Below are positions 2,756-59,434 of a DNA stretch of 64,000 nt, piece after piece. The first letter of the stretch is position 1. Each line of letters opens with the position of its first letter. A program made the position numbers and the translations under genes. Below the pieces are notes generated by a model. It was not told the DNA's origin, did no database searches, and saw nothing but the letters and a program-made list of their open reading frames with translations. Source of the stretch: Octopus vulgaris (Eukaryota); assembly GCA_951406725.2 (NCBI GenBank), contig OX597816.1, positions 92,938,001-93,002,000 on the forward strand. The letters run 5' to 3'.

Positions 2756-2847
2756 ATGTAAACTCACCCATGTGCTTCGTTGATGTTGATCAGTTAGCTG
2801 ATCGACTTAAGCGGGGCAGGGTCGTTTGTTTATGTATGATACATTCA

Positions 2848-2893
2848 GGCCTGCTGATGAGTACGTAAGTATGAAATCACTGTGATACAGGTC
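2848..2893 (+). ncRNA. Type I hammerhead ribozyme, canonical core
   Basis: ggcctg-CTGATGA-gtac-GTAA-gtat-GAA-atca-ctg-tgat-A^caggtc. All three stems pair, loop II is a GNRA tetraloop, and cleavage is predicted after A2887. Confidence 0.85.
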
Positions 2894-3134
2894 TATATTT
2901 TTAAATGTCTTACTTTGAAAAATTGCACTCGGTGGGATTAGTAATATTTTTGGTAGAAATGACTAATTGTCCCTCTTAGCGTGTGGCATGTATGTATAAT
3001 GCCCTCTATATATAAATTAATATGTTCAATAAGAAATAATTATTTTCGAAATTTATTCTCTTATGAGGTTTTCACGCTATCTACCTGACAATTTCTTGTT
3101 AAGTTTTCCTTATTAAGTAGTTGTCCTTAATTGT

Positions 3135-4594
<1,460 letters not shown>

Positions 4595-5039
4595 GGTTCC
4601 GTTTTCAGCAGAGAAAGACGTGATTGCCTTTGCTCTGTGAAAAAGTCTGCATAGAACGGCGAAATAACCCACTGTAGTTGCAAAACGTAAAACTCTAAGT
4701 CATAGACATCACTACAACACTTTGGTTAAAAATATTTTAAAAAATATATATATAAATATATACATATACACAGTAATTTTCATTTTCGCCGAAACGCACA
4801 TGGTGCAAAAATAACTGAATCAAGTTATCTCCTGCAAGAAAGAAAAAAGAAGCATCTCTCCCGAAAAAAATCCCGTAAACCAAAAAAAAATTATCCAGAC
4901 CACATTGTTGGATTAAGTATCAATTTCATCTATTTCATATTTTATTTATTATTCTATTTTATCTTTCACTTAGGCCCACATCTTAGTTAAAGTTGCGATC
5001 GTCATTTGGTTTGTTTACATTTTCAATAACTGTTCTCGA

Positions 5040-6170
5040 TATAATAATTTTCCAGATACTCTATCTTCTAATTAGCCTTAAGATTAAATTAAATAACGTT
5101 TAATATTGATACCGTCAAATTAGCCTTAGGATTAAATTAAATAACGTTTAATATAGTTTAATATTGTTAATAATTATTGTTAATTAGCCTTAAGATTAAA
5201 TTAAATAACGTTTAATATTGTTTTAATATTGTTAATAATTTTTCAGATACTCTATCTTCTAATTAGCCTTAAGATTAAATTAAATAACGTTTAATATTAA
5301 TAACGTCTAATTAGCCTTAGGATTAAATTAAATAACGTTTAATATTGTTAATAATTATTGTTAATTAGCCTTAGGATTAAATTAAATAACGTTTAATATT
5401 GTTAATAATTATTATTAATTAGCCTTAGGATTAAATTAAATAACGTTTAATATTGTTTAATATTGTTAATAATTATTGTTAATTAGCCTTAAGATTAAAT
5501 TAAATAACGTTTAATATTGTTTTAATATTGTTAATACTTCTTCAGATACTCTATCTTCTAATTAGCCTTAAGATTAAATTAAATAACCTTTAATATTACC
5601 CACACTCTAATATAATATTAACATTGCTAATATATTTTCAGATACTCTATCTCCTGATTAGCCTTAAGATTAAATAACGTTTTTATCCACACTCTAATAT
5701 AATATTAATATTGCTAATATATTTTCAGATACTCTATCTTCTAATTAGCCTTAAGATTAAATTAAATAACGTTTAATATTAATAACGTCTAATTAGCCTT
5801 AAGATTAAATTAAATAACGGTTAATATTGCTTAATATTGTATATATAATTTTTCAGATACTCTGTCTTCTAATTAGCCTTAAGATTAAATTAAATAACGT
5901 TTAATATTACCCACACTCTAATATAATATTAATATTGCTAATATATTTTCAGATACTCTATCTCCAAATTAGCCTTAAGATTAAATAACGTTTTTTTACC
6001 CACACTCTAATATAATATTAATATTGCTAATATATTTTCAGATACTCTATCTCCTAATTTAGCCTTAAGATTAAATAACGTTTTTACCCAAATAACGTTT
6101 TTACACAAACTTTAATATTGTTAATATTTCTTTTTCAAGTACTCTATCTTCTAATTAGCCTTAATATCTT
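5040..6170 (+). repeat. Modular tandem array in the LINE 5'UTR
   Basis: About 16 copies of aattagcctta(a/g)gattaaattaaataacgtttaatatt, interleaved with a few recurring linker modules. Confidence 0.9.
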
Positions 6171-6225
6171 CCTGTCTTCTCTCGAACATAATTAGATAGA
6201 TAAACGGATAGACGGATTATCCAGC

Positions 6226-7137
6226 ATGTCCAGAGCATGGAGACGTGACGAGCTGGATTTATTCGTACGAGCATGGGAGTGCGCCGGCGGAGATAGCCCT
6301 AGCGAGGTGATTGCGGCTGCGCTGAAGAGCAGAGGCTACAAGAGGACAGCGGCTCAGATGGAGCGAAAGAGACAGGAATTCGTGCGCTCATATGCGCTTG
6401 TACGGTCGCACATTGGCGCACTTGATGCCATCTTTGAGAACGAGCGGGGCAAAGATGGCAAGAATGGAGACGATGAAAGAAGTCACCCCCACCTGGTGGA
6501 CGCCCAGGAGGAGGTTTTGAATGAGAAACCTGCCCGGGAAGTGAACCCAGGTGCAAGTTCTCCAACCGGCAGCAAGGGCCATGGAGACGGAGAACCCGGT
6601 GAAGAGGTAGAGGGAGGAAGAAGAACTAAAAGAAGGACTGGAAGAGCTAAAGGAAAAGAAAAAGCTCAAGCAGGACAAAAGAGTGAAACAACCAGGAGTA
6701 GAAGTGGAACCGCAAAGGATGGAACCAAACAGCGCACACGGGTGTGTATGTTCTACCTGAGAGGTTCCTGCTGGCACGGAAAGGAAGGTGCAGGCTGCCG
6801 CTTTGCACATCGGGGACCCTGCCACAGAGACACGAGGCAGATGGACAAACCATCAACACAAAGAAAAGGGATGGACTACGCACCACCTGCCCCAAAGCGG
6901 AGGTACGCAGATGTTGTGCGCGCCACAAACAGCCAACATGATGTTGTCGAAAGAGCAGCTGCTGAGCAACAATCTTTTTTGTGCATGGCACAAAAGATTG
7001 TACAGCAGCTGACCTGGCTTCATCAAACCCAAGCCCGCAGGTGGGACTACCCACTATATACCAGACCACCACAGCAAACAGACACAGGATGGACACCGCC
7101 GGCAACAACGTACACCTCACCTCGATACTCCTACTGA
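6226..7137 (+). CDS. LINE ORF1: N-terminal Myb/SANT(trihelix)-like domain, basic low-complexity linker, CCCH zinc finger
   Basis: 303 aa from an ATG. W..DE..LF..W...I...L..RGY.RT..Q..RK....Y fits the Myb/SANT-like pattern. CMFYLRGSCWHGKEGAGCRFAH (C-x7-C-x8-C-x3-H) lies at 6745-6810. Confidence 0.8.
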   Translation: MSRAWRRDELDLFVRAWECAGGDSPSEVIAAALKSRGYKRTAAQMERKRQEFVRSYALVRSHIGALDAIFENERGKDGKNGDDERSHPHLVDAQEEVLNEKPAREVNPGASSPTGSKGHGDGEPGEEVEGGRRTKRRTGRAKGKEKAQAGQKSETTRSRSGTAKDGTKQRTRVCMFYLRGSCWHGKEGAGCRFAHRGPCHRDTRQMDKPSTQRKGMDYAPPAPKRRYADVVRATNSQHDVVERAAAEQQSFLCMAQKIVQQLTWLHQTQARRWDYPLYTRPPQQTDTGWTPPATTYTSPRYSY

Positions 7138-10085
7138 ACATCAGAGGACTGCAAACACTCAGTAACAGGACAAAGATCCCGTTCCTGAGAGACTTTGTTG
7201 CATGCAATCAAGCCTTATGCATAGCACTTACAGAAACGCACCTGAAACCGGACATAGCAGATGCGGAGTTACACATACCACAGTATGCTGTACTACGGAC
7301 CGACAGGAAAGAAAGGAGTCATGGAGGTGTTGCTATGTACATCCGTGAGGACCTCACACCCCAGGTCCTCTTGTCATACTCAAACTCGGTGTGTGACACA
7401 CTAATTGTACATATTAGGCAACTTGATGTAGTTGTGTGTGCTACATATCGCCCTCCAGATGCCCCAAGCCATGTGGGCAAGTTCGAAGACTGCCTTATAA
7501 AAATAGAAGAAATTCTAACCACATTAGAACAACACATATGTGTGCTTCTTATGGGAGACTTCAATCTGCCCAATGTCAGATGGCCCGAGGGCCTTTCTCT
7601 CCCAGGAATGACAAGATGTGAACGAGGACAGGCGAGGTCCCTCCTGAACCTCATCAACACCCTGTACATGGAGCAGGTAATACTCCAACCAACCAGGGCA
7701 GGTAACACACTGGATCTCTGCTTCACAAATGACATGGATCTCATCCATAATGTGAAAGTGACACCGACACTACTCTCGGATCACAACATGATAGAGCTGA
7801 CCATGTACGGGCCAAAAGAGAGCACGGACATGCAGCCTACAAGAAACCCTCAAAATCTTTCCAGCTTGAACTACCATAAGGCAAACTGGAAACAAATTGA
7901 GAAAGAGATCCTCAAACAAAACTGGCCTGAATGTCTCTCCTCGCCAGACATCGATGTGAAACTTCAACAATTCATGTCTGTAATGCAAGCCATATGCTAC
8001 AAATGTGTCCCAGAGAGAAAGGCCACTGTACACAAGAACAAAATCCCCAGAGAGAGGAAAATTTTAATGAGACGGCGTACGAAATTTTCAAATCGCCTAA
8101 ACAAACAGATTGAAAGCAGTGAAAAGTCCCGCCTAAAAATAAAACTGTTGGAAATCGAAAAATGTCTGCAACTCTCCCATGAAAAAGAAAGAGCAGACAA
8201 AGAAGCCTGGGCTATAGAAAACATAAAATCTAACCCCAGAGCTTTCTACAGGTATGCCAAAGAAACAGCTACAGTGCACTGTAGAATAGGGCCACTCCTT
8301 GAAAAGGATGGCACACTTACAGGAAAACCAATGAGGGTAAGTGAAATACTGAATGAGCAATTCAAGAGTGTTTTCACTCCACCCCTTGGGCATCTCCAAA
8401 TCACCAATCCAACTGACTTTTTTACCACTGCAGATATAAAATCAGAGGCGGCGACGATAGATTACATCGATATAAAGGAAGTCGATGTAACCAAGGCTAT
8501 AGATGAAATGAAAACAGACTCAGCTACTGGCCCCGATGGATTCCCGGCAATCCTCCTAAAAGCATGTAAGAGAGTCCTAGCAAGACCACTGCAGTTCCTC
8601 TTTCAGAGCTTCCTTGCAGCTGGCAAACTTCCAGGAAAACTGAAGGAAGGTAAAATATGCCCCATTCATAAAGGAGGTAGCAGAGCGGAAGCCAAGAACT
8701 ATAGACCTATCTCTCTGACCTCACACATCAGCAAGGTCATGGAACGAATAGTCAGAAGGAAGCTGACCACCTTCCTTGAAGAGAATGACCTGCTGCCCGA
8801 CACCCAACATGGTTTCCGACCAGGGAGAAGCTGTTTAACTCAGCTCCTACAACACTATGACTGGGTGCTGAAACGGCTGCTCAACCACTCAAATGTGGAA
8901 GTGATATATCTCGACTTTGCAAAGGCCTTTGATAAAGTCGATCATGGAATGATATGTCACAAACTGCGTGATCTCAACATAGTTGGAAAACTGGGAGAAT
9001 GGCTTCATGACTTTCTGAAGGATAGAAGTCAGGTGGTAGTAGCCAATGGGGCCACCTCCATTAACACACAAATAGTGAGCGGTGTTCCGCAGGGCACTGT
9101 TCTGGGACCACTACTGTTCATAATGGCCCTCTCAGACATGCCCTCAGCCACGCAGAGAGCCACGATCACAAGTTATGCAGATGATACAAAAGTCTCACAG
9201 GCAATACAGAACCCTGAGGACACTAAACACCTGCAATGTGAGCTGGACGAAATATACAAGTGGGCTGAAAAGAATAGCATGCAGTTCAATGCTGGAAAGT
9301 TTCAAGCTTTATACTATCAGCATGCAAAACTGAATGCAATACCCAATGAATACACTGGACCCGGAGGGATTGCAATCCCAGAGGCACAATCAGTGCGTGA
9401 CCTTGGTATTCACATGAGTGATGACGCGACCTTTCATGTACATGTTGCTAAACTGACAATGAAATGTAGACGGCTGGCTGGATGGATTCTTAGAACCTTT
9501 AGAACAAGAGAACAAGAAACCATGATGGTCCTCTGGAAGACACTTGTCCTAAGCCACTTTGACTATTGCTCTCAGCTATGGTCACCATCCAGTGTCAAGT
9601 TGATCACAGAACTTGAGGCGATCCAACGAAGCTACACAAAGAAGATAGCCTCTATGCAGAATGTAAGCTACTGGGAAAGACTCAAGAGATTAAAATTATA
9701 TTCCCTGGAGCGTAGGCGGGAAAGATATGCCATAATATACATCTGGAAGATCCTGGAGGGAAGTGTCCTGAACTTTGGCATCGAGAGTTACGCAAATGCC
9801 AGAACTGGGCGCCACTGCGTGGTGCCTAGGACTCCAAACCTGCCATCAAGATGTAGGACAAGATTCTGTGATAGCCTGGGCTTCCGAGGCCCACAGCTCT
9901 TCAATATCCTCCCGAAGAACCTGAGAGACCTGCATGGGGTGGATACAAATGTCTTTAAAATGAAGCTGGATCTCTTCCTGTCAGGTGTCCCAGATGAACC
10001 AACTTCACGGCAGGAGGGGCAGATGAGGGCAGCTGCATCGAACTCTCTCATGCACCAAATAGCAGTTGCTAGAAAGCCTCCATGA
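6981..10085 (+). CDS. LINE ORF2: apurinic-like endonuclease plus reverse transcriptase (first in-frame ATG at 7089)
   Basis: APE motifs NIRGL, LTETHL, YRPP, GDFNLP, LDL and SDH. RT motifs [42 protein letters not shown] and RDLG. CR1-like C-terminus [15 protein letters not shown], with no C-terminal CCHC. Confidence 0.97.
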
Positions 10086-10182
10086 AGTGAAACCAAGTAG
10101 CAACACCAAATGGCGGTGCCCCAGCATGGCCACAGCTCATAAGCTGAAACTAGAATCAATCAATCAATCAATCAATCAATCA

Positions 10183-13894: not shown

Positions 13895-14476
13895 TTATTT
13901 TCTACTCTAGGCACAAGGCCTGAAATTTTGGGGGAGGGAGCCAGTCGATTAGATCTACTCCAGTACACAACTGGTACTAAATTTATCGATCCCGAAAGGA
14001 TGAAAGGCAAAGTGGACTTCGGCGGAATTTGAACTCAGGAAGTAAAGACAGACAGAATACCTATTTCTTTACTACCCACAAGGGGCTAAACACAGAGAGG
14101 ACAAACAAGGAGAGACAAACGGATTAAGTCGATCATATCGACCCCAGTGCGTAACTGGTACTTATTTAATCGACCCCAAAAGGATGAAAGGCAAAGTCGA
14201 CCACGGCGAAATTTGAACTCAGACGTAACGGCCGACGAAATAGCTGTTTCTTTATTACCCGCAAGGGGCCAAACATAGAGGGGACAAACAAGGACAGACA
14301 AACGGATTAAGTCGATTACATTGACCCCAGTGCGTAACTGGTACTTAATTTATCGACCCCGAAAGGATGAAAGGCAAAGTCGACCTCGGTGGAATTTGAA
14401 CTAAGAGCGTAACGGCAGACGAAATACGGCTACGCATTTTGCCCGGCGTGCTAATGTTTTTGCCAGCTCGCCGCCT
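13895..14476 (-). mobile_element. SINE family B with a triplicated internal unit
   Basis: Minus head ggcggcgagctggca..ttagcacgccggg. The ~185 bp unit containing gttcaaattcc..gtcgactttgcctttcatcctttcggg occurs three times. Confidence 0.75.
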
Positions 14477-15619: not shown

Positions 15620-15817
15620 GAAACATTAGCACACAGGGCGAAATGCTTAGAGATTTTTCGTCTGTCTTTACATTCTGAGTTCAAATTCCGCCGAGGCACA
15701 CTTTGCTTTTCATCCTTTCGGGGTTGATAAATTAAGTACCAGTTGTGCACTGGAGTCGATCTAATTGACTGTTTCCCTCCCCAAAAATGTCGGGCCTTGT
15801 GCCTGGAGCAGAAAGAA
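15620..15817 (+). mobile_element. SINE family B
   Basis: ttagcacacagggcgaaatgc...gagttcaaattccgccgagg...cctttcggggt, as in the copies at 13895 and 38174. Confidence 0.75.
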
Positions 15818-16584: not shown

Positions 16585-16715
16585 TTGTAAATAAAACGTG
16601 AAAATCAGAGAAAGTTGGATTTTCTTTGAGTAATATATTCTTCTATACACAATCATACACACCTGTGTGTATATATATGTATAATCAAAATAAGCAACAA
16701 GGATATCCAGAGGTA

Positions 16716-16804
16716 ATGCAGTACGATCGTTTCATGCAACTCCATTTAATTGAACAATGCAATCATTACATCAATTTAAAATACAGAGCAATCTTCAGCT
16801 GCAC
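16716..16804 (-). ncRNA. Minimal type I hammerhead (left arm)
   Basis: gtgcag-CTGAAGA-long stem II-GAA-ACGATCGT-A^ctgcat, with a palindromic stem III. Confidence 0.75.
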
Positions 16805-18560
16805 AAAGGCATAGAATTTAATTAAATTAGAACAGATGGACACATTAGTATAAATATACGTAAAATCTCCAAGAAGTTAAATAGATAGACAAAGAACATG
16901 CTGTTCTTATTCCAGCATAGCAGTTACTAAGCTTTTCAAGAAGATATACATTGTTACAGACTCTGCCTGTCACTGATTTTGTTATTTTTATGGGGTCAGT
17001 TTTAATTTATAGACTAGTTCATGAAAACCTTTGTATCTCTAAGGCTGAGAGAATAGAGGGCAGTACTGTTAGGGGTAGGGCTGAGGGAGCAGACAGACAT
17101 CGTAGTTGGTATAATCATAAAAATCAAGATTTATTAGAAGCAATATCATGAGATTTGGTAAAGGAAAAACTTAAAACAAGATGTTAGCTGACAATTAAGG
17201 GGGTCACCCACTATGAGACCATTGATAATGAAACAGGGGAAGTCTTATCATATAGTTAAATATTTTAAACAATGTTGCTATATTGTATACAGTTAAAGTT
17301 TAGTGTTATTCAGAGGATTATTAAGAAGTATATTATAACAAAAGTATAGAAATTTATGAATACTTTTGAGTATATACCAAACTTTTATCATAATAGAGGG
17401 AGGAAAAGAAATTATCCAGAAACAGTTTAATATTTATACATATTGTACACTTAAATACTAACTCATCAGATGGTATCTGTGAATATTGATTAATTGGCAT
17501 ATACTGGTATTAATAAAGGAGTATTGAGGTAAAGGAACGTTCTAATTATATATTAATAAAATTATAATCTAAGCAGTTTTACCATAGTATTAGTAATTAA
17601 GCTATTTTATTTCATTTTCTATGGTGTTCTGCCCTACTTGATTATTTTATAATTAGCCTTTATTTATTTATATAATTAATCTAACTTTTGTATCTCTATA
17701 AATTCATACTTAGCTTATATAAAACTATACTGGTGTATTCACTACTTATAAAAAACTGCTTAGATTATAATTTTATTAATATATAATTAGCATGTTCCTT
17801 TACCTCAATACTCCTTTATTAATACCAGTAAATACCAATTAATCAATATTCACAGATACATCTGATGAGTTAGTATTTAAGTGTACAATATGAGTTAGTA
17901 TCTGATGAGTTAGTATTTAAGTGTACAATAACTATTTCTAGATAATTTCTTTTCCTCTCTTTATTATGATAAAAGTTTGGTATATACTCAAAAGTATTCA
18001 TAAATTTCTATACTTTTGTTATAATATACTTCTTAATAATCCTCTGAATAACCCTAAACTTTAACTGTATACAATATAACAACATTGTTTAAAATATTTA
18101 ACTATAGTACTACATGATAAGACTTCCCCTGTTTCATTATCAATGGTCTGCTAGTGAGCGACCCCCTAAATTGTCAGCTAACATCTTGTTTTAAGTTTTT
18201 CCTTTACCAAATCTCATGATATTGCTTCTAATAAATCTTGATTTTTATGATTATACCAACTATGATGTCTGTCTGCTCCCTCAGTCCTACCCCTAACAGT
18301 ACTGCCCTCTGTTCTCTCAGCCTTAGAGATAGAAAGGTTTTCATGAACTAGTCTATAAATTAAAACTGACCCCATAAAAATAACAAAATTAGTGACAGGC
18401 AGAGTCTGTAACAATGTATATCTTCTTGAAAAGCTTAGTAACTTCTATGCTGGAATAAGAACAGCATGTTCTTTGTCTATCTCCTTAACTTCTTGGAGAT
18501 TTTACGTATAATTATACTAATGTGTCCATCTGTTCTAATTTAATTAAATTCTATGCCTTT

Positions 18561-18649
18561 GTGCAGCTGAAGATTGCTCTGTATTTTAAATTGATGTAAT
18601 GATTGCATTGTTCAATTAAATGGAGTTGCATGAAACGATTGTACTGCAT
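18561..18649 (+). ncRNA. Minimal type I hammerhead (right arm)
   Basis: gtgcag-CTGAAGA-...-GAAA-cgatt-GTA^ctgcat; cleavage predicted after A18643. Confidence 0.72.
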
Positions 18650-18763
18650 TACCTATGGATATCCTTGTTGCTTATTTTGATTTTAATCACCTTAGTTTGA
18701 AATTGTATGGATAATACTGTACTAAATTCTGGTGCCTCAACTTAAGTACCATATTCATCTGAA

Positions 18764-18812: not shown

Positions 18813-20017
18813 ACAGACATGCAGGAAGTAAATAGACACCTTTAATTTTCAAAATCTTTTATTTAATTCACAAATGTAATCGATAAGTAGGACTACCTAC
18901 TTTAGTATTTAGTTGACATTCCCTTTGCAGTTTTTAATTCAGAAACTCATTTTTGCATTGAATGATGAGCTTTGTGATTGTCTCTTGTGGAATTTCTGCC
19001 AACTTTTCATGTAACAATCGAAACAATTCATCTTTAGATTTAGGTTTCTGTCAAGTTTTTCATATAGCTCTATCTAGTATGCTCCAAAGATTTTCAGTTG
19101 GGTTCATGTCAGTAGATTGGCTCGGCCAAGGAAGCTTTTTGATCCCATTTCAGTCAATCATTGTTGATTCCTTTTCGTTGTGTTATATGGGGCCCATCTT
19201 CCATGAAGAAAAACTCATTTTTCGTTATGTTATCATGTGAATACATCGGAAGTAGCCCTCACTTAAGTATTTCAATGTATTTTTTCAGATTTTATGGTTC
19301 CAACACATTCAATCAGCTCAGAACGACCATTGCTGGTGACAGTACCCAATACCATTACAGAGATACTGCCTTGTTTCACAACTGGTTAGAGTCATTTCAA
19401 ATGATATTGCTGATTGGGAAGCCTCCAGACCTAAACACGTCCACTATCTGAAAATAATGCAAATCTGGATTATTCTGAGAAAATCACTCTATCCCAAGAT
19501 GAACTGGATTTTCCTGACATCTCTTTAGCCCATTTCTTTCTTTTCATGATATTAATTGGTTGAAGGAGAGGCTTTCTTCTAACTGCTCGTTCATAATACC
19601 CAAGCTTATGCAGATATGTAACACATGTTCTTGGCTAACTTCTAGCTGTGTTGCAATGTCAGAAGCCTTCGAACGGGTGTTCCTTTTCCACAATTCTGGT
19701 GATTCTTTTCCTTGGCTTTTGAACTGCACTATAATTCTATTAACTGTAGCAAGAGGAATTTGCAGATTTTCGGCAATTTTTGGCTGGCTAAGGCCAGCCT
19801 CAGATAGACCAATAATACAACCTCTTTGAAAATCTGACAGTTCTACTGAATTTTTTGTGTGTGGCATGGTTACTCGTCACAAATGTTTAATATAATGGCA
19901 CCTGGAATGGAAAAGAATAATTACATTGTAAATTCTACACTGCCGAAAACATATCAAGGTGCTTAGATAAGAAATTTTGAAAATGAACAGTGTCTATTTA
20001 CTTCCTGCATGTCTGTG
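18812..20017 (-). mobile_element. Tc1-family DNA transposon with decayed transposase
   Basis: Perfect 28 bp TIRs cacagacatgcaggaagtaaatagacac (18812-18839 and 19990-20017) with TA on both sides. ORF start [28 protein letters not shown] is a Tc1 HTH; the downstream part is disrupted. Confidence 0.9.
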
Positions 20018-21984: not shown

Positions 21985-24240
21985 GTCAGTCATTATGACT
22001 ATGACCATTCATGGTTTTGGTATGACCTGATAAGCTTCCTCCATACTGGTCAGTTTTTCGCTTGGGTTTGCCATTTATAATATTTGATTCCTTTTCACTT
22101 CATGTTGTTTTGCAGTGAATCTCAGTTTAGGCCTTCCATGATTTCCTTTACCCTTGCATAGTTGAGAGTAAAGGTGTTGTCTAGGGAGTCTGCTGGTGTC
22201 CATCTTGTGTATCTGTCTCACTCGATGTAAATTTCTATCAATGAGTATTTCCATCATTGGATGCAGACCAGCATGCAGAGGATCTTTTCATTCCTGACCT
22301 TATCAAACAGAGTGATAGTCATAATCTGTTATGGCTGTCTCATCATAGATGCATGCAGCTTGTCTAATTGAGTTTTATAGACTCTCCAGGTTTCAGTATC
22401 ATACAGCAGGGAAGACAGCACTATACCTCACATTTAACCAGTATAGAAACATGCCTATTTTTTCACAGCCTCTCCTGTTGCCTGCCAAATGAAAAACTAG
22501 CTTTGCTAATTCTGTATGAGATTTCCTGGTCCAGTTGTACATTATCTGAAATGGTGCTGCTTAGGTTTTTGAATACTTTGCATTGGACCAGCCTTTCTTG
22601 TCTAATAGTGATGTTTTCTTCAGCTACAGAGGGAGATAGGTTCTCTACCATTTGGTAAAGGCATTCAGTTCTTCTGGTGCTAATCTTGAAGCTGAACTGT
22701 TGTGAAACTGGCAAAGTTATCTACCAGTTTCTGCATATCATCAGCACTGTGAGCAACCAGTGCACTATCATCAGCAAACATCACCTCTCGTACCAGGATC
22801 TTCGTAGTGCATGTCTTTGCTTTATACTATACAACATTTATACTATACAAATCAGCATCATGCTGAAACTGGATGTAAATCCCTCTTCCAACTTTTTTGA
22901 AGGCAACTTCAAACATTGCTATGAGATAAAGGGAGGACAGTGCTGGAGCAAGTATGCACCCTTGTTTAACTCCATTTGTCACTGCAAATGCACTTGAGGC
23001 ATTGCTATCTTGTACTATAAATCCCTGCATTCTTTTGTGCAAGGACCAGACCAAGTTGATGAACCGTTGAGGACATATATGTTTCTTAAGAATCACCCAA
23101 AGCCCATCACAAGATATAGTATCAAAAACCTTTGTGAAGTCTATGAATACTATACATAGGTATGTTCTTGTGAAATCGGCGAAGACAGATCATGTTCACC
23201 ATGGTTCTACCACCATGGAAGCCACACTGAGTCTCAGATGAGACATTTTGACAGATATGCTCATTTAGTCTGTTTAATGAAATATGAGCTAAAATCTTCC
23301 CAGCTACTCATAAAAGGTATATTCCTCAGTTGTTTCTACAACTCACTCTACAACCTTTTTTGAAGACAAGTATGATACCTGTGTATTTCCAGTCTTGTTG
23401 AATCATTTTAGTCTCCCTGATCTAGAGAATAATGTTATACTGGCTTTCAATAAGCTCCACACCTCCATGCTTCCTGATTGCAGTAGATATGTTATATCTG
23501 CGAAGTGCTTTACCTTCTTTCATTTGTTTGATTGCATCACTGAATTCCTTTTAAATAGGTTCATCTCTAAGGATCAGTTGGTTGACTGTCATGTAACCTC
23601 AAGGGTGATTAGCAAATCTATCAAGGATCTCCCATTTTTCCTGGAGTACTGTTTTGCCATCAAAACCAATGAGTTTTGTTATACCTTTTCTCTGTGGCCC
23701 ATATACATCTCAAATCCCAAATAAAAGGCTTTTATATAATTTTGATTAGCATGATGGTGCAGTTCTTCTTTGGCTGCCCACCAATCTGATTTCAGTTTCC
23801 TAGTATATCGTTGCAGCTTCCTTCTTGATTCCACCAGATTTTCCTTTGTGTTGTCATTTAACTGCTCTACTATTCCAGCATTCCTTTCCTCTAGTTAGTA
23901 GGTTCTGTAGTTGGATGTCATCCTCGTTGAACCAATCTTGATGTTTTTTCACTGATTTGCCTACGACTCGTTCAGCTTTTTCATATGTAGCTATTTTCAA
24001 GATGTTCCATTTTCCTTCATGTCCTTTGTTTCCCTTATCTTCAGATCCTTCCAAAGCCTCATCCAGCTGGTCCTTCAATTCCTGTATTAGATGACCATTG
24101 ACTCTCATGAGTTCCTCTACCCTTTGTTGCTTTTTGCTCTTAGTCCCACAAGAAGTCCAAAATCCCCCTCCCCACTGAGCAAGCTAGCTGAAGTTACTGG
24201 TTTAATCACTTGACCATGCATCAGATTGTAGTGGGTTACA
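21985..24240 (-). mobile_element. Decayed RTE-clade LINE (ORF2 relic)
   Basis: Fragments GVKQGCILAPAL, LDQEISYRISKASFSFGR, RLPRQHLYSQLCKGK.N.GRPKLRF and KKHQDWFNE, with many stops and frameshifts. Confidence 0.85.
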
Positions 24241-33669: not shown

Positions 33670-33990
33670 CTTTGGGCAAGTGTCTTCTACTATAGCCTCG
33701 GGCAGACTATAGCCTTGTGAATGGATTTGGTAGATGGAAACTGAAAGAAGCCCGTCATATATACATATATATATATATATATATGATGATGATGATAAAT
33801 ATATATATATATATATATGAGTGTATATTTGTATGTCTGATTCTGTCCCCCACTATCATTTGACAACCAATATTGGTGTGCTTATGTCCTTGTAATTTAG
33901 CGGTTCGGCATAAGGAACCGATAGAATAAGTACTAGGCTTACAAAAAAGGTGGTGCTCCAGCAGGGCTGCAATCAAATGACTGAAACAAA
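33670..33990 (+). mobile_element. SINE family A, 5'-truncated
   Basis: ttgggcaagtgtcttctactatagcc...ggtgctccagca..caaatgactgaaac. Confidence 0.8.
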
Positions 33991-38173: not shown

Positions 38174-38388
38174 GACGGCCAGCTGGCAGAATCGTTAGCA
38201 CACAGGCCAAAATGCTTGGCGGCATTTCGCCCCTACGCTACTTTCTGAGTTCAAATTCCGTAGAGATCGACTTTGTATTTAATCCTTTCGGGGTCGATAA
38301 ACTAAGTAGCAGTGAAATACAGGAGTCGATGTAATCGACTAGCTCCCCCTCCCCCCAAATTTTGGGCTTCGTGCCTAGAGTAGAAACG

Positions 38389-43753: not shown

Positions 43754-44386
43754 TGAAGGCATGCGTGTGTATTAGTGCGGGCGTGTGGGTATATTAGTAC
43801 ATGTGTGTGTGTGCATGTATAATTAGAAAAAGAGAGAGAGGGGGGAAGAGAAAGAGAGAGAGAGAAACAGACAGATAGACAAACAGATAGACAGACAGCT
43901 AGATAATGTTTGGAGTGGCATATAACTAATGTTTCAAACTCTGTGTGTTCGGTTATATTTCAAAAGATCAACAGATGAAGAGTAAATGCGTTAGTATCTC
44001 TTATTGTCGTTCTGAGTTCAAATTCCACCGCGGTCGACTTCGCCTTTCATCCTTTCTGGGTCAATAAATTAAGTACCAGTTGAGTACTGAAGTCGAAGTA
44101 ATTTCAGGCCTTGTGCCTACAGTAGGAGTATCTCTTATTGCCTCCTGTATCGCATTTACGTCATTATGAATGTGACTAGCGTGAAGATAAATGGTTACGT
44201 TTTTTCAATACATCTTATAAATGTTACATTAGCACTGATCTCTGCTATTTAAGGAAAAATATTATGAACAGATTATTTTTAATGGAACACATCTGAGATA
44301 TATTAAATAACGTAAATATTTATCTATATACTTTTTATATCAATCAGTCAGTCAATCAATCAATCAATCGATCCATCCATCAATAA

Positions 44387-45860: not shown

Positions 45861-46033
45861 GTTTCATGAACAGCCTCGTAAAACTCTGAGTAGAAATCTG
45901 TCGGGATTTTCTCAGCTTAATGAAATAGTATATTACTCTACTTTTGTTATTCGAGTACTATCTTTTTCAGTTTGTTTAGCAGCTATGTGCTTACTTGCGT
46001 GCGTGTGTATATGTATGTATGTTTGTGCATGTA

Positions 46034-47578
46034 CAACCTTGGCCAAAAGTATTAGGCCAACCCAATGTTTTGGGGTTCTGCTATCTCAATGTTAATGAAA
46101 CTCGTGCACATAGTAGATTGTGGTATATTTCACAATATGCATTAGTTTTAATATCTGGTTGACCCTCATTTAGCATAAATTACTGCTTTTATACTGTACT
46201 GTACATAGCACCCAATTATGAGTAAGACCAACGTCCAACATTAACTTATGTTTCCTTGATTATTTCAGAGTTTTATGCTAAAATACATTGTAGATACAGT
46301 TAATAAGCAGTAAAATGCCTAAAACAAGGGAGTTGGGTGAGTGTAAGCGAGGTCAAATCGTAGATCATCATGAAGATAGAATGTCTCAAAGGCAAATTGC
46401 TCAGAAGATGAAATGTTCTCGATGTGCTGTGAAAACGACCCTCAAGCACTTCAGAGAGACAAGACATGTGAAGACAATACAAAGAACAGGCAGAAAAAAG
46501 GTTACATCACCTCGTGATGATAGATCCATCATCCGTCAGTCGCTCAGAAACAGAAGAAAAACATCGTCGGAGCTCTGTGCGGACTTCAACAAGGCAGATA
46601 CTTCAAAAATATCAACCAGAACTGTTAGAAGAAGGCTTGTAGAGTACGGTCTGAAAGGTTGTAAAGCCAGGAAGAAGCCATGGGTTTCTGAAGCGAATAT
46701 GGAAAAAAGTCTTCTGTGGGCCAAAAACCACTCAAATTGGACCAGTGAGCAATGGTCAAAAGTGATATGGTCTGATGAAAGTAACTATGAGGTAAGATAG
46801 TACATGTATTCAATCAACATATAAACTTAATGTATCTGGTTTGTTGCCCAAAATATATAAAAAAGTATCCGACATAAAGCTAATATTATTTTTCATATTC
46901 TTACTCGGGTTTTCAGTACATCTGGTGCAACTATCATGCGTCGCAGATGTGGGAAGCATTTAAGGTTGAGTGTCTGGTACCAACCGTAAAAGATGGGAGT
47001 GGTTCTAACATGGTGTGGGCCTGCATGTCTGCCACAGGATCCGGAGAATTGTTTTTATGTAAGGGAAGGATAAATTCAGCTACCTATGCTTCTATATTAT
47101 CAGATGTTTTAGAGCCATCAATTGTTAAATTGCATCCAGGAGTGTCGAAAAACAGTGTTATCTTTCAACAAGACAACGCTTCATGTCATACAGCAAAGAA
47201 TACTCATCAGTGGTTTAAGACAGAGTATTATTCTCATGGACTGTCCAGTTCAAAGTCCCGATCTAAATCCGATCGAACACCTAGCTTCTTGGTGAAGCTA
47301 TCAGGAACAGGAACACAACAATTGAAAATAAGGAGCATTTGTACCAAACGTTAAGAGAAGAATGGAGTAAAATTGCACCTAGCACCTGGAAGAAACTAGT
47401 TGATTCAATGCCTAACCGTATAAAAGCGGTAATTGATGCTAAAAGCGGGTCAGCCAGATATTAACCCTAATGTATATTGTGAAATATGCCATAATCTACC
47501 ATGTGCATGAGTTTCATTAACATTGAGATAGCAGAACTCCAAAACATTGGAGTGGCCTAATACTTTTGGCCAAGGCTG
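46034..47578 (+). mobile_element. Tc1-family transposon with ~132 bp TIRs
   Basis: TIRs at 46034-46165 and 47447-47578, with TA on both sides. Confidence 0.93.
46315..47464 (+). pseudogene. Tc1 DDE transposase pseudogene with one intron (46792-46908)
   Basis: MPKTRELGECKRGQIV HTH, GRKKVTSPRDDR, WSDES, FQQDNASCH and SPDLNPIEH. The second exon has frameshifts. Confidence 0.88.
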
Positions 47579-47980
47579 TATATATATATATATATATATA
47601 CATAAGGTTGCCAACCACCAATCCTCAAATGCCTGCACAGGTTGCCCCCACCCACAACATTATGCACCCTTGCAAAACTCTAATTTAGCTTCCATATACG
47701 AGATGTGCACACGCAGACGCACACATACTCCGACACACGCCAAACACTTATACGTACACACCCACACATACGCACACACATGTACACCCCACACACACAC
47801 ACATATTCACCAGCTTTACTTCTGCCATATCTAGACACTGCGGCGCCACCAGTTTCCGAAAAGGAAGTGTGGTCGCTGAACAACTGATATTCTTTGACGA
47901 CACCATGTGAACCACCTTGGCCAATAGCAGCCTATCTTTTGGTAGCCATCTTGAACTTCCTGTATTTCTCCATTCGGCAA

Positions 47981-58156: not shown

Positions 58157-59434
58157 CGAGGTGGTATCAAAATGTTTCCAGACTAGTTATATTTAATAAA
58201 AAGTAACATATTCACCTAAGTTTTAACATCAACTTCGAAATTGTCACCTTGCGCAGCAATACACCGGTTCCAGTGTTCCCTCCACATTTAGAATCTGGCC
58301 TCAAATTCGTTTTCCGTAAGCGAATCGAGGAGTTTCTGCAATTCGCTCTGGATCGCGACAACGGTGTTAAAACGACGACCTTTGAGCTGTATTTTCATTG
58401 TGAAGAAGAGTTAAATCTCGCGAATAGGGTGGGTACGGAAGCGATAGTATGTTGCTTTTGGCAAGAAACTTATGAGTGAGGAAAGCTCGGTGGCAGGGTG
58501 CATTGTCGTCGTGAAGAATCCAATTCTTCACGCTCCACAGATCCGGTAGCTTTCACCTAATATCCTCCTCAAATGCTTCAGAACATCGCAGTAGAACTCT
58601 CGATTGACGGTCTGGTTCTGGGGGACGAATTCTCGATGCACACTAACGCGGACGTCAAAAAAGACGATAAACATGCTTTTGATTGAGCTGCGGCTTTGTC
58701 GTGGCTTCTTCAGTCGTAGAGATGAAAGCTTCCTCCATTGTGGTGACTGCTGCTTCATCTCAGGGTCATGCACGTAGACCCAGTTCTCTTCACCGGTGAT
58801 GGTCTTCGACATGAAGGATGGATCATTAGCGGCACGCTAACGAATATTTTGACAAACTTCGACCCGAAGTTTTTTCTGCTCAGTGGTCAGCATGCGAGGG
58901 ACAGAAATACGCCGCGTGTTTAATTCAGACGTTAGGATTGCCTGTATGGGCCCATACGACAGCAATGTCGTTGATTGTCCTCCGACGATCTTCATGCAAA
59001 AGCTGAATTTTCTCCCCATTTCCGGGGGTGATGTTCGTGGCAGGTCTTCCAAATCGCTCATCGACTTCCAGGGACGTTCTTCCGTGTTTGAAGCGCCCAT
59101 GCTAATCGAAACATTGCGTATGACCCATTGCCATGTCGCCGTAAGCTTATGAAGCGAAGCATGCTCTTTGTCTATGTAGCAGAATTCCCAAGTTTAGCGC
59201 AAAATTTCACTTCGGGCTCTTTGCTCAAACTTTCTGTCCATGACAAAATCGCAGACCGTAGCATACACGTGATAACAAAAACACAAATTTCACAACTTGC
59301 AAAGTAAGTACAGTGATGTCACTCGCACACTGCCTCATAAAGATCACTGCTGGCGCTCACTACACACGCAACTGTGTGCTGCTATCTCTTGACGTGCAAC
59401 AGAACTAGTCCGGGAAGTATTTGATACCACCTCG
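58157..59434 (-). mobile_element. mariner-family transposon, decayed
   Basis: ~32 bp TIRs cgaggtggtatcaaa..gactagtt with TA flanks. Fragments VPRMLT.EQK..RV, ITGEENWVY.HDPE.KQQS.QW and HDDNAPCH. Confidence 0.9.

Follow-up and report, generated by a model that had tools for sequence, protein, structure and literature searches.

A hammerhead-bearing repeat between TA tracts of the Octopus vulgaris genome, probably a shortened retrozyme monomer

The stretch of Octopus vulgaris DNA analysed here (64,000 nucleotides, hereafter the window) contains a short non-coding island, set between long TA tracts, that carries a type I hammerhead ribozyme motif and belongs to an abundant repeat family. This island is probably a shortened monomer of a non-LTR retrozyme, for whose insertion into the TA microsatellite a Penelope-like element likely supplied the enzymes. 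In the sequence, this reading is based on the motif itself, the many variant copies of the repeat, one head-to-tail join, and an upstream piece that is missing from the island copy. The island and its flanks are laid out as follows:

2378-2755, no strand: left (TA)n tract, running into what in other family copies is a short internal TA run.
2756-3134, plus strand: island, probably a shortened monomer of a high-copy, non-coding, retrozyme-like repeat family; hundreds of variant contigs reach each of its 30 bins (runs X1, X2 and X8).
2756-2835, plus strand: predicted long 5' hairpin of the island RNA, from the minimum-energy fold.
3134-4594, no strand: right (TA)n/(TG)n tract between the island and a LINE, from the sequence.

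The island spans approximately 380 bp with a GC content of 34%. Its longest stop-free frame runs to 51 codons (32 when counted from an ATG), in agreement with the preliminary description of this DNA, which had presented it as a non-coding island between two long TA tracts. The tracts measure 378 bases on the left and ~1460 bases on the right, and because TA repeat lies on both sides, no target-site duplication is discernible. As a locus the island is single copy, with no second copy detected in the 64-kb window by self-BLAST.

The hammerhead motif at 2847-2894 is real and lies above chance expectation. The preliminary description had picked it out as the best hammerhead of the window for its 6-bp stem I, GUAA-capped stem II, 4-bp stem III and AUA triplet, and it proved to be the sole type I fold on both strands of the 64 kb. 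Its parts are:

2847-2894, plus strand: type I hammerhead motif of canonical proportions (helix I 6-7 bp, helix II 4, helix III 4), from a pattern scan.
2854-2860, plus strand: catalytic core box CUGAUGA, from the sequence.
2861-2872, plus strand: helix II, 2861-2864 with 2869-2872, closed by a GUAA (GNRA) loop; the basal pair is G.U in the window.
2876-2886, plus strand: helix III, A2876-A2879 with U2883-U2886, and a CUG loop; an 11-nt palindrome with an unpaired centre, giving 4 bp in a monomer and 10 bp between two copies.
2887-2888, plus strand: predicted cleavage site after A2887, last base of the AUA triplet 2885-2887, from the hammerhead consensus.

Stem I pairs 2848-2853 with 2888-2893 (6 bp, one of them G.U), with a possible 7th pair between A2847 and U2894, and the GAAA box occupies 2873-2876. 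The motif thereby displays the defining parts of a type I hammerhead, namely the CUGANGA core, GAAA, UH, three helices, and an open helix I. The position of the cut, after A2887, we take to follow from the established hammerhead consensus. Chance levels were estimated with block-wise dinucleotide shuffles (n = 200): at least one match appeared in none of the 200 shuffled windows at stem lengths of 6/4/3, in 3 at 5/3/2, and in 10 at 4/2/2. The core words alone occur at chance level (16 matches vs. 8.1 ± 6.3).

One part of the motif departs from the standard. The basal pair of stem II is G.U instead of the G10.1-C11.1 pair, which PMC4209133 describes as highly conserved in hammerheads but which is not invariant; cleavage is reported to persist in an axolotl hammerhead family with a U.U mismatch at that position (PMC7229834). 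An Rfam search of the sequence returned no match at the gathering score, and the 24 matches at E ≤ 10 include no hammerhead family. Two components of the loop contact set out in PMC11875169 occur in the island, a GNRA loop and U2894 (position 1.7), although A2847 could compete by pairing with U2894. Separately, a relaxed scan returned a weak hammerhead-like match at ~45-96 on the minus strand (core at 91, bulged stem II, indistinct stem III), which is probably due to chance.

Four of 24 listed sequencing runs were compared with the island: X1, X2 and X8, which carry three organism labels and amount to 2.3-3.3 billion letters of contigs, and X9, which is RNA by guess only. Variant contigs fitting the island numbered 942 in X1, 1038 in X2 and 607 in X8, mostly 90-100% alike and together reaching every bin. 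Summed depth over the island reaches 0.3-1.0 million and single contigs a depth of up to 1351, where neither contig counts nor depth equate to copy number. Since hundreds of variant contigs over 379 bp are impossible for a single-copy locus, the repeat is a high-copy family, which on these contigs would comprise at least hundreds and probably thousands of copies. The preliminary description had proposed a BLAST-type check and had counted a single-copy, unconserved sequence against its reading; what the comparison returned was a family of variants.

Positions 2834, 2928, and 3055 set the window copy apart from most of this family. Within the motif, the most frequent variant, G2861A, accounts for 22%, 38% and 11% of the summed depth in the three runs, and by changing G.U to A-U it keeps the pair at the base of stem II. 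The core holds no listed variant (at least 5 in 100) in 13 positions, compared with 22 listed places in the other 366, a difference that is not significant. Ten X2 contigs and four X8 contigs share a non-repetitive upstream extension, which precedes 2759 and closes with a short TA run. This extension does not lie beside the island, and its best match in the window is at 33724 with 3 mismatches. Because other copies carry the extension and its terminal TA run while the window copy lacks it, the window copy is, by sequence comparison, truncated at an internal TA run, which is now continuous with the TA tract beside it.

Towards the 3' end of the island (3094-3134), the fall in summed depth is far greater in X1 than in X2 or X8, possibly a sign that the organism labels differ in their subfamilies. 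Pattern scans for relatives yielded none in viral contigs and none in metagenome contigs. A looser pattern gave eight candidate loci, which were rejected as chance matches, none of the eight having both stems I and II or any similarity past the pattern.

The head-to-tail arrangement comes from X9, in which eight contigs fit the island. Record 25 of this run (529 nt, depth 8.4) reads 3002-3133, then 78 other letters, then 2756-3029, and then 21 letters that are presumably sequencing adapter. Its start and end overlap by 28 positions, so that it makes one full turn of a unit of ~480 nt, leaving no room for an ORF between the 3' and 5' ends of the island. The record is a circle or a tandem, and contigs cannot tell which. 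On this basis, the full family unit would measure ~460-480 nt. The join was found in one contig of one of the four runs and in none of the other three (X1, X2 and X8), whose listed pieces (at most 123 nt) are too short to span it.

Record 26 of X9 begins at 2852 behind a TA run, which makes it a second shortened copy attached to such a repeat. This record and record 25 each exceed the window form by 22-24 nt, and among the indels listed, the insertions of record 26 cluster in stem II. The X9 insertions listed have zero depth in X1, X2 and X8, whose short pieces may miss them. With its ~24 additional nucleotides, record 25 may represent another subfamily.

Folding was predicted with ViennaRNA, a model that does not include tertiary contacts or magnesium. 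In the isolated motif, stems I and II form with a probability above 0.93 and stem III with 0.02, while the probability of stem I is 0.67 in the whole island and 0.06 in the fragment 2800-2950. As a monomer, the hammerhead lies 3 kcal/mol above a favoured misfold in which the core is base-paired to the 5' arm of stem III. When two copies are folded together, the structure of lowest energy is precisely the double hammerhead, at -30.5 kcal/mol vs. -24.8 kcal/mol for two misfolded monomers. Cleavage of the monomer, which had been put forward at the outset, is doubtful in light of these predictions, because the monomer prefers the misfold and two copies prefer the double hammerhead. The preference for a dimer is itself a prediction rather than a result, since tertiary contacts and magnesium could close the gap of 3 kcal/mol and only the fifth pair of the stem III palindrome goes beyond what the monomer stem requires.

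A dimer preference would agree with the newt and axolotl satellite hammerheads, for which double-hammerhead cleavage through an extended palindromic helix III is reported (PMC7229834, PMC6155905). Helix III is 1-2 bp in those repeats and 4 bp in the island, so some activity of the monomer may persist. A good-looking motif can also be inactive, as eight of nine predicted frog retrozyme dimers are reported without in vitro cleavage (10.64898/2026.07.22.740005). Over its whole length, the island folds more stably than all 60 of its shuffles, although this stability is modest, with one of 27 control stretches equally stable. Self-pairing gives z-scores of -2.9 to -3.1 for the linear form and -4.7 when the shortened piece is closed, a calculation from which 78 nt of the unit are absent.

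The retrozyme reading would entail the following course of events. Following the published model, tandem copies would be transcribed, and neighbouring hammerheads in the transcript would join along the palindromic helix III and excise monomers of ~460-480 nt. These monomers would be circularised by a host ligase, and the circles would then be copied into TA repeats, in many cases incompletely, by a reverse transcriptase and endonuclease of the Penelope type. With one ribozyme only, the island could not free a monomer unaided. Its cleavage would be poor in the absence of a second family transcript to pair with, and the island is likely a dead-end insertion.

Several properties of the island are those of the metazoan non-LTR retrozymes of mussel, coral, and axolotl (PMC7229834): a non-coding unit of a few hundred bases, GC content below 50%, one type I hammerhead per unit, and many copies. 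A head-to-tail or circular form is shared with the same group, here in one contig, and length variants of ~20 nt are shared with the coral retrozymes (PMC7229834). Reported unit sizes range from 150 to 450 bp, with ~350-390 bp in mussel (PMC7229834), and from 51 to 972 bp in a second survey (10.64898/2026.07.22.740005). Unlike the retrozymes of PMC7229834, the island is a lone shortened monomer in a microsatellite, its family unit would be ~460-480 nt rather than 150-450 bp, its helix III has 4 bp rather than 1-2, and its stem II opens with G.U or A-U; cleavage and circles are predictions in the case of the island. Dispersed solo copies of a hammerhead repeat are also known as monomeric retrozyme derivatives of Penelope-like pseudo-LTRs, and such dispersed monomers are read as non-transposing offspring derived from those pseudo-LTRs (Li, Clavereau, Pollet; bioRxiv 10.64898/2026.07.22.740005). 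The sampling given for that survey comprises 31 vertebrates and 4 invertebrates (three insects and one anthozoan), with no mollusc.

The likeness extends to the hammerheads of Penelope-like pseudo-LTRs (PMC4209133), which share with the island a type I topology, a palindromic helix III, a predicted dimeric action, and occurrence as dispersed single copies. In its proportions, the island motif matches the canonical metazoan type of PMC4209133 (helix I of 6 bp, helix II of 4 bp, palindromic helix III). It differs from the minimal Penelope hammerhead of the same study in lacking a bulged base after A9, in a helix II of 4 bp instead of 7-8, and in the presence of helix III, while some Penelope-like elements are described as carrying variants with a small palindromic helix III (PMC4209133). 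In contrast to the Penelope-like elements of PMC4209133, no reverse transcriptase or GIY-YIG frame linked to the island was found in the window, and Pfam gave no GIY-YIG match in 111 scanned frames of the window (6 + 105). A preference for TA and hidden target-site duplications are reported for the Naiad and Neptune clades of Penelope-like elements (PMC8557442). By analogy, we infer that a Neptune-like element would be the first candidate partner, since Naiads are described as lacking canonical hammerheads and as leaving only remnants in cephalopods (PMC8557442). O. vulgaris is reported to hold 31 recently active Penelope-like families (PMC13282606).

A somewhat unlikely alternative is that the island is a solo pseudo-LTR, the end fragment of an autonomous Penelope-like element left by a truncated insertion into TA repeat, whose hammerhead serves the processing of the parent RNA. 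Most Penelope-associated hammerheads are reported to be single dispersed motifs from truncated copies (PMC4209133), the TA bias of the Neptune and Naiad clades (PMC8557442) fits as well, and record 26 of X9, with its longer helix II, tends towards the Penelope type. However, the sole contig that crosses the 3' end of the island returns to the 5' end after 78 letters without an ORF, and the proportions of the window motif are canonical, not minimal. The loose ends listed are too short to show coding sequence either way, and 118 more lie outside that list. Frog retrozymes are described as homologous to pseudo-LTRs (10.64898/2026.07.22.740005), and the two readings therefore grade into each other. 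Both had been named from the start, as a retrozyme-like unit or solo pseudo-LTR, and the high-copy family and the one contig with a head-to-tail join bear that assignment out.

A two-form reading of the family is unlikely as it stands. It would see an abundant cephalopod retrozyme family that targets TA microsatellites, in which a form with a longer helix II is transcribed and circularised and the many dispersed short-helix copies carry palindromic hammerheads that cut only when paired with another RNA of the family. If this were true, read-through transcripts from many loci could be cut in trans, under the control of family expression.

Two of the remaining alternatives involve the LINE on the far side of the right TA tract:

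4595-10182, plus strand: LINE, not part of the island element; ORF1 at 6226-7137, endonuclease and reverse transcriptase frame at 6966-10085, (AATC)7 tail; the 5' end at 4595 is assumed.

Both frames of this LINE are open and overlap, and the element lies on the same strand as the island, with a TA tract after it as well. The nearest named relative of its protein comes from Argonauta hians (57% identity). Its ORF1 has a weak Torus/CCCH-type Pfam match below the cut-off, and 5040-6170 within the element consists of AT-rich tandem subrepeats. The window holds further repeats:

16680-18685: foldback element of 2 kb, 89% identical to its reverse complement.
46006-47602: remnant of a Tc1-like transposon, with transposase HTH domains at 46294-46800 and inverted ends of ~190 bp at 86%.
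22830-23189, minus strand: reverse transcriptase fragment of another LINE, in a weak alignment 27% identical to the reverse transcriptase of the intact LINE.
58531-58836 and 19547-19876, both minus strand: partial DDE transposase and HTH fragments.
13943-14427: tandem array of a 183-bp unit (2.6 copies), which recurs dispersed at 15660-15814, 38239-38386 and 44008-44102.

It is quite improbable that the family is a satellite or SINE-like repeat with a hammerhead, carried through the genome by a LINE or amplified at the DNA level, with no Penelope-like partner involved. The neighbouring LINE does likewise lie between TA tracts, and PMC7229834 leaves LINEs open as mobilisers. However, comparison of the island with 4595-10182 found no significant similarity and no shared 3' end or tail, the best hit (E 0.25) being an AT-rich match only. 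In addition, a tRNA scan found no tRNA genes in the 64-kb window, and inspection of the island sequence found no (AATC)n tail.

There is very little to recommend the view that the ribozyme is retained for the cleavage of read-through RNA ahead of the intact LINE. The preliminary description correctly placed the island ~1.7 kb upstream of the LINE, on the same strand and in a shared TA tract: the predicted cut after A2887 lies 1707 nt before the end of that tract and 3338 nt before the ATG of ORF1. An incidental cut of read-through RNA is possible if the motif folds. The further proposal, that cleavage separates read-through transcripts from the LINE, found no support. The cut would leave 247 nt of island and ~1.46 kb of microsatellite ahead of the first non-repeat base on the LINE side and would not define an exact 5' end for the LINE, the monomer fold is predicted to be disfavoured, and the three departures of the island from the family majority are as expected of an ordinary ageing copy. 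A many-copy repeat that is seen joined to a TA run elsewhere too explains the neighbourhood, and in a high-copy family one LINE neighbour needs no special cause. The island and the LINE are likely unrelated, as two TA-associated mobile elements in one TA tract suffice for their arrangement without a functional link. Finally, a chance hammerhead match inside an unrelated repeat is scarcely credible, because despite the missing Rfam match, the non-standard base of stem II and a core conservation short of significance, no shuffled window gave such a fold and the commonest motif variant keeps its pair.

The class of element to which we assign the island as a shortened retrozyme monomer is itself known, such hammerhead repeats occurring in corals, mussels, insects, and amphibians. 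In the full texts searched on hammerheads and retrozymes in octopus and cephalopods, mostly open-access papers, no earlier octopus description was found; the supplement of PMC7229834 may list cephalopod retrozymes. The giant squid paper only counts 235 Rfam hammerhead matches (PMC6962438), and the 2026 repeat annotation of O. vulgaris does not contain the word ribozyme in its main text (PMC13282606). The single locus is likely an ordinary leftover copy. As an abundant family missed by Rfam, these repeats would add cephalopods to the retrozyme map, and their TA-bound, shortened copies would help test which autonomous element moves animal retrozymes.
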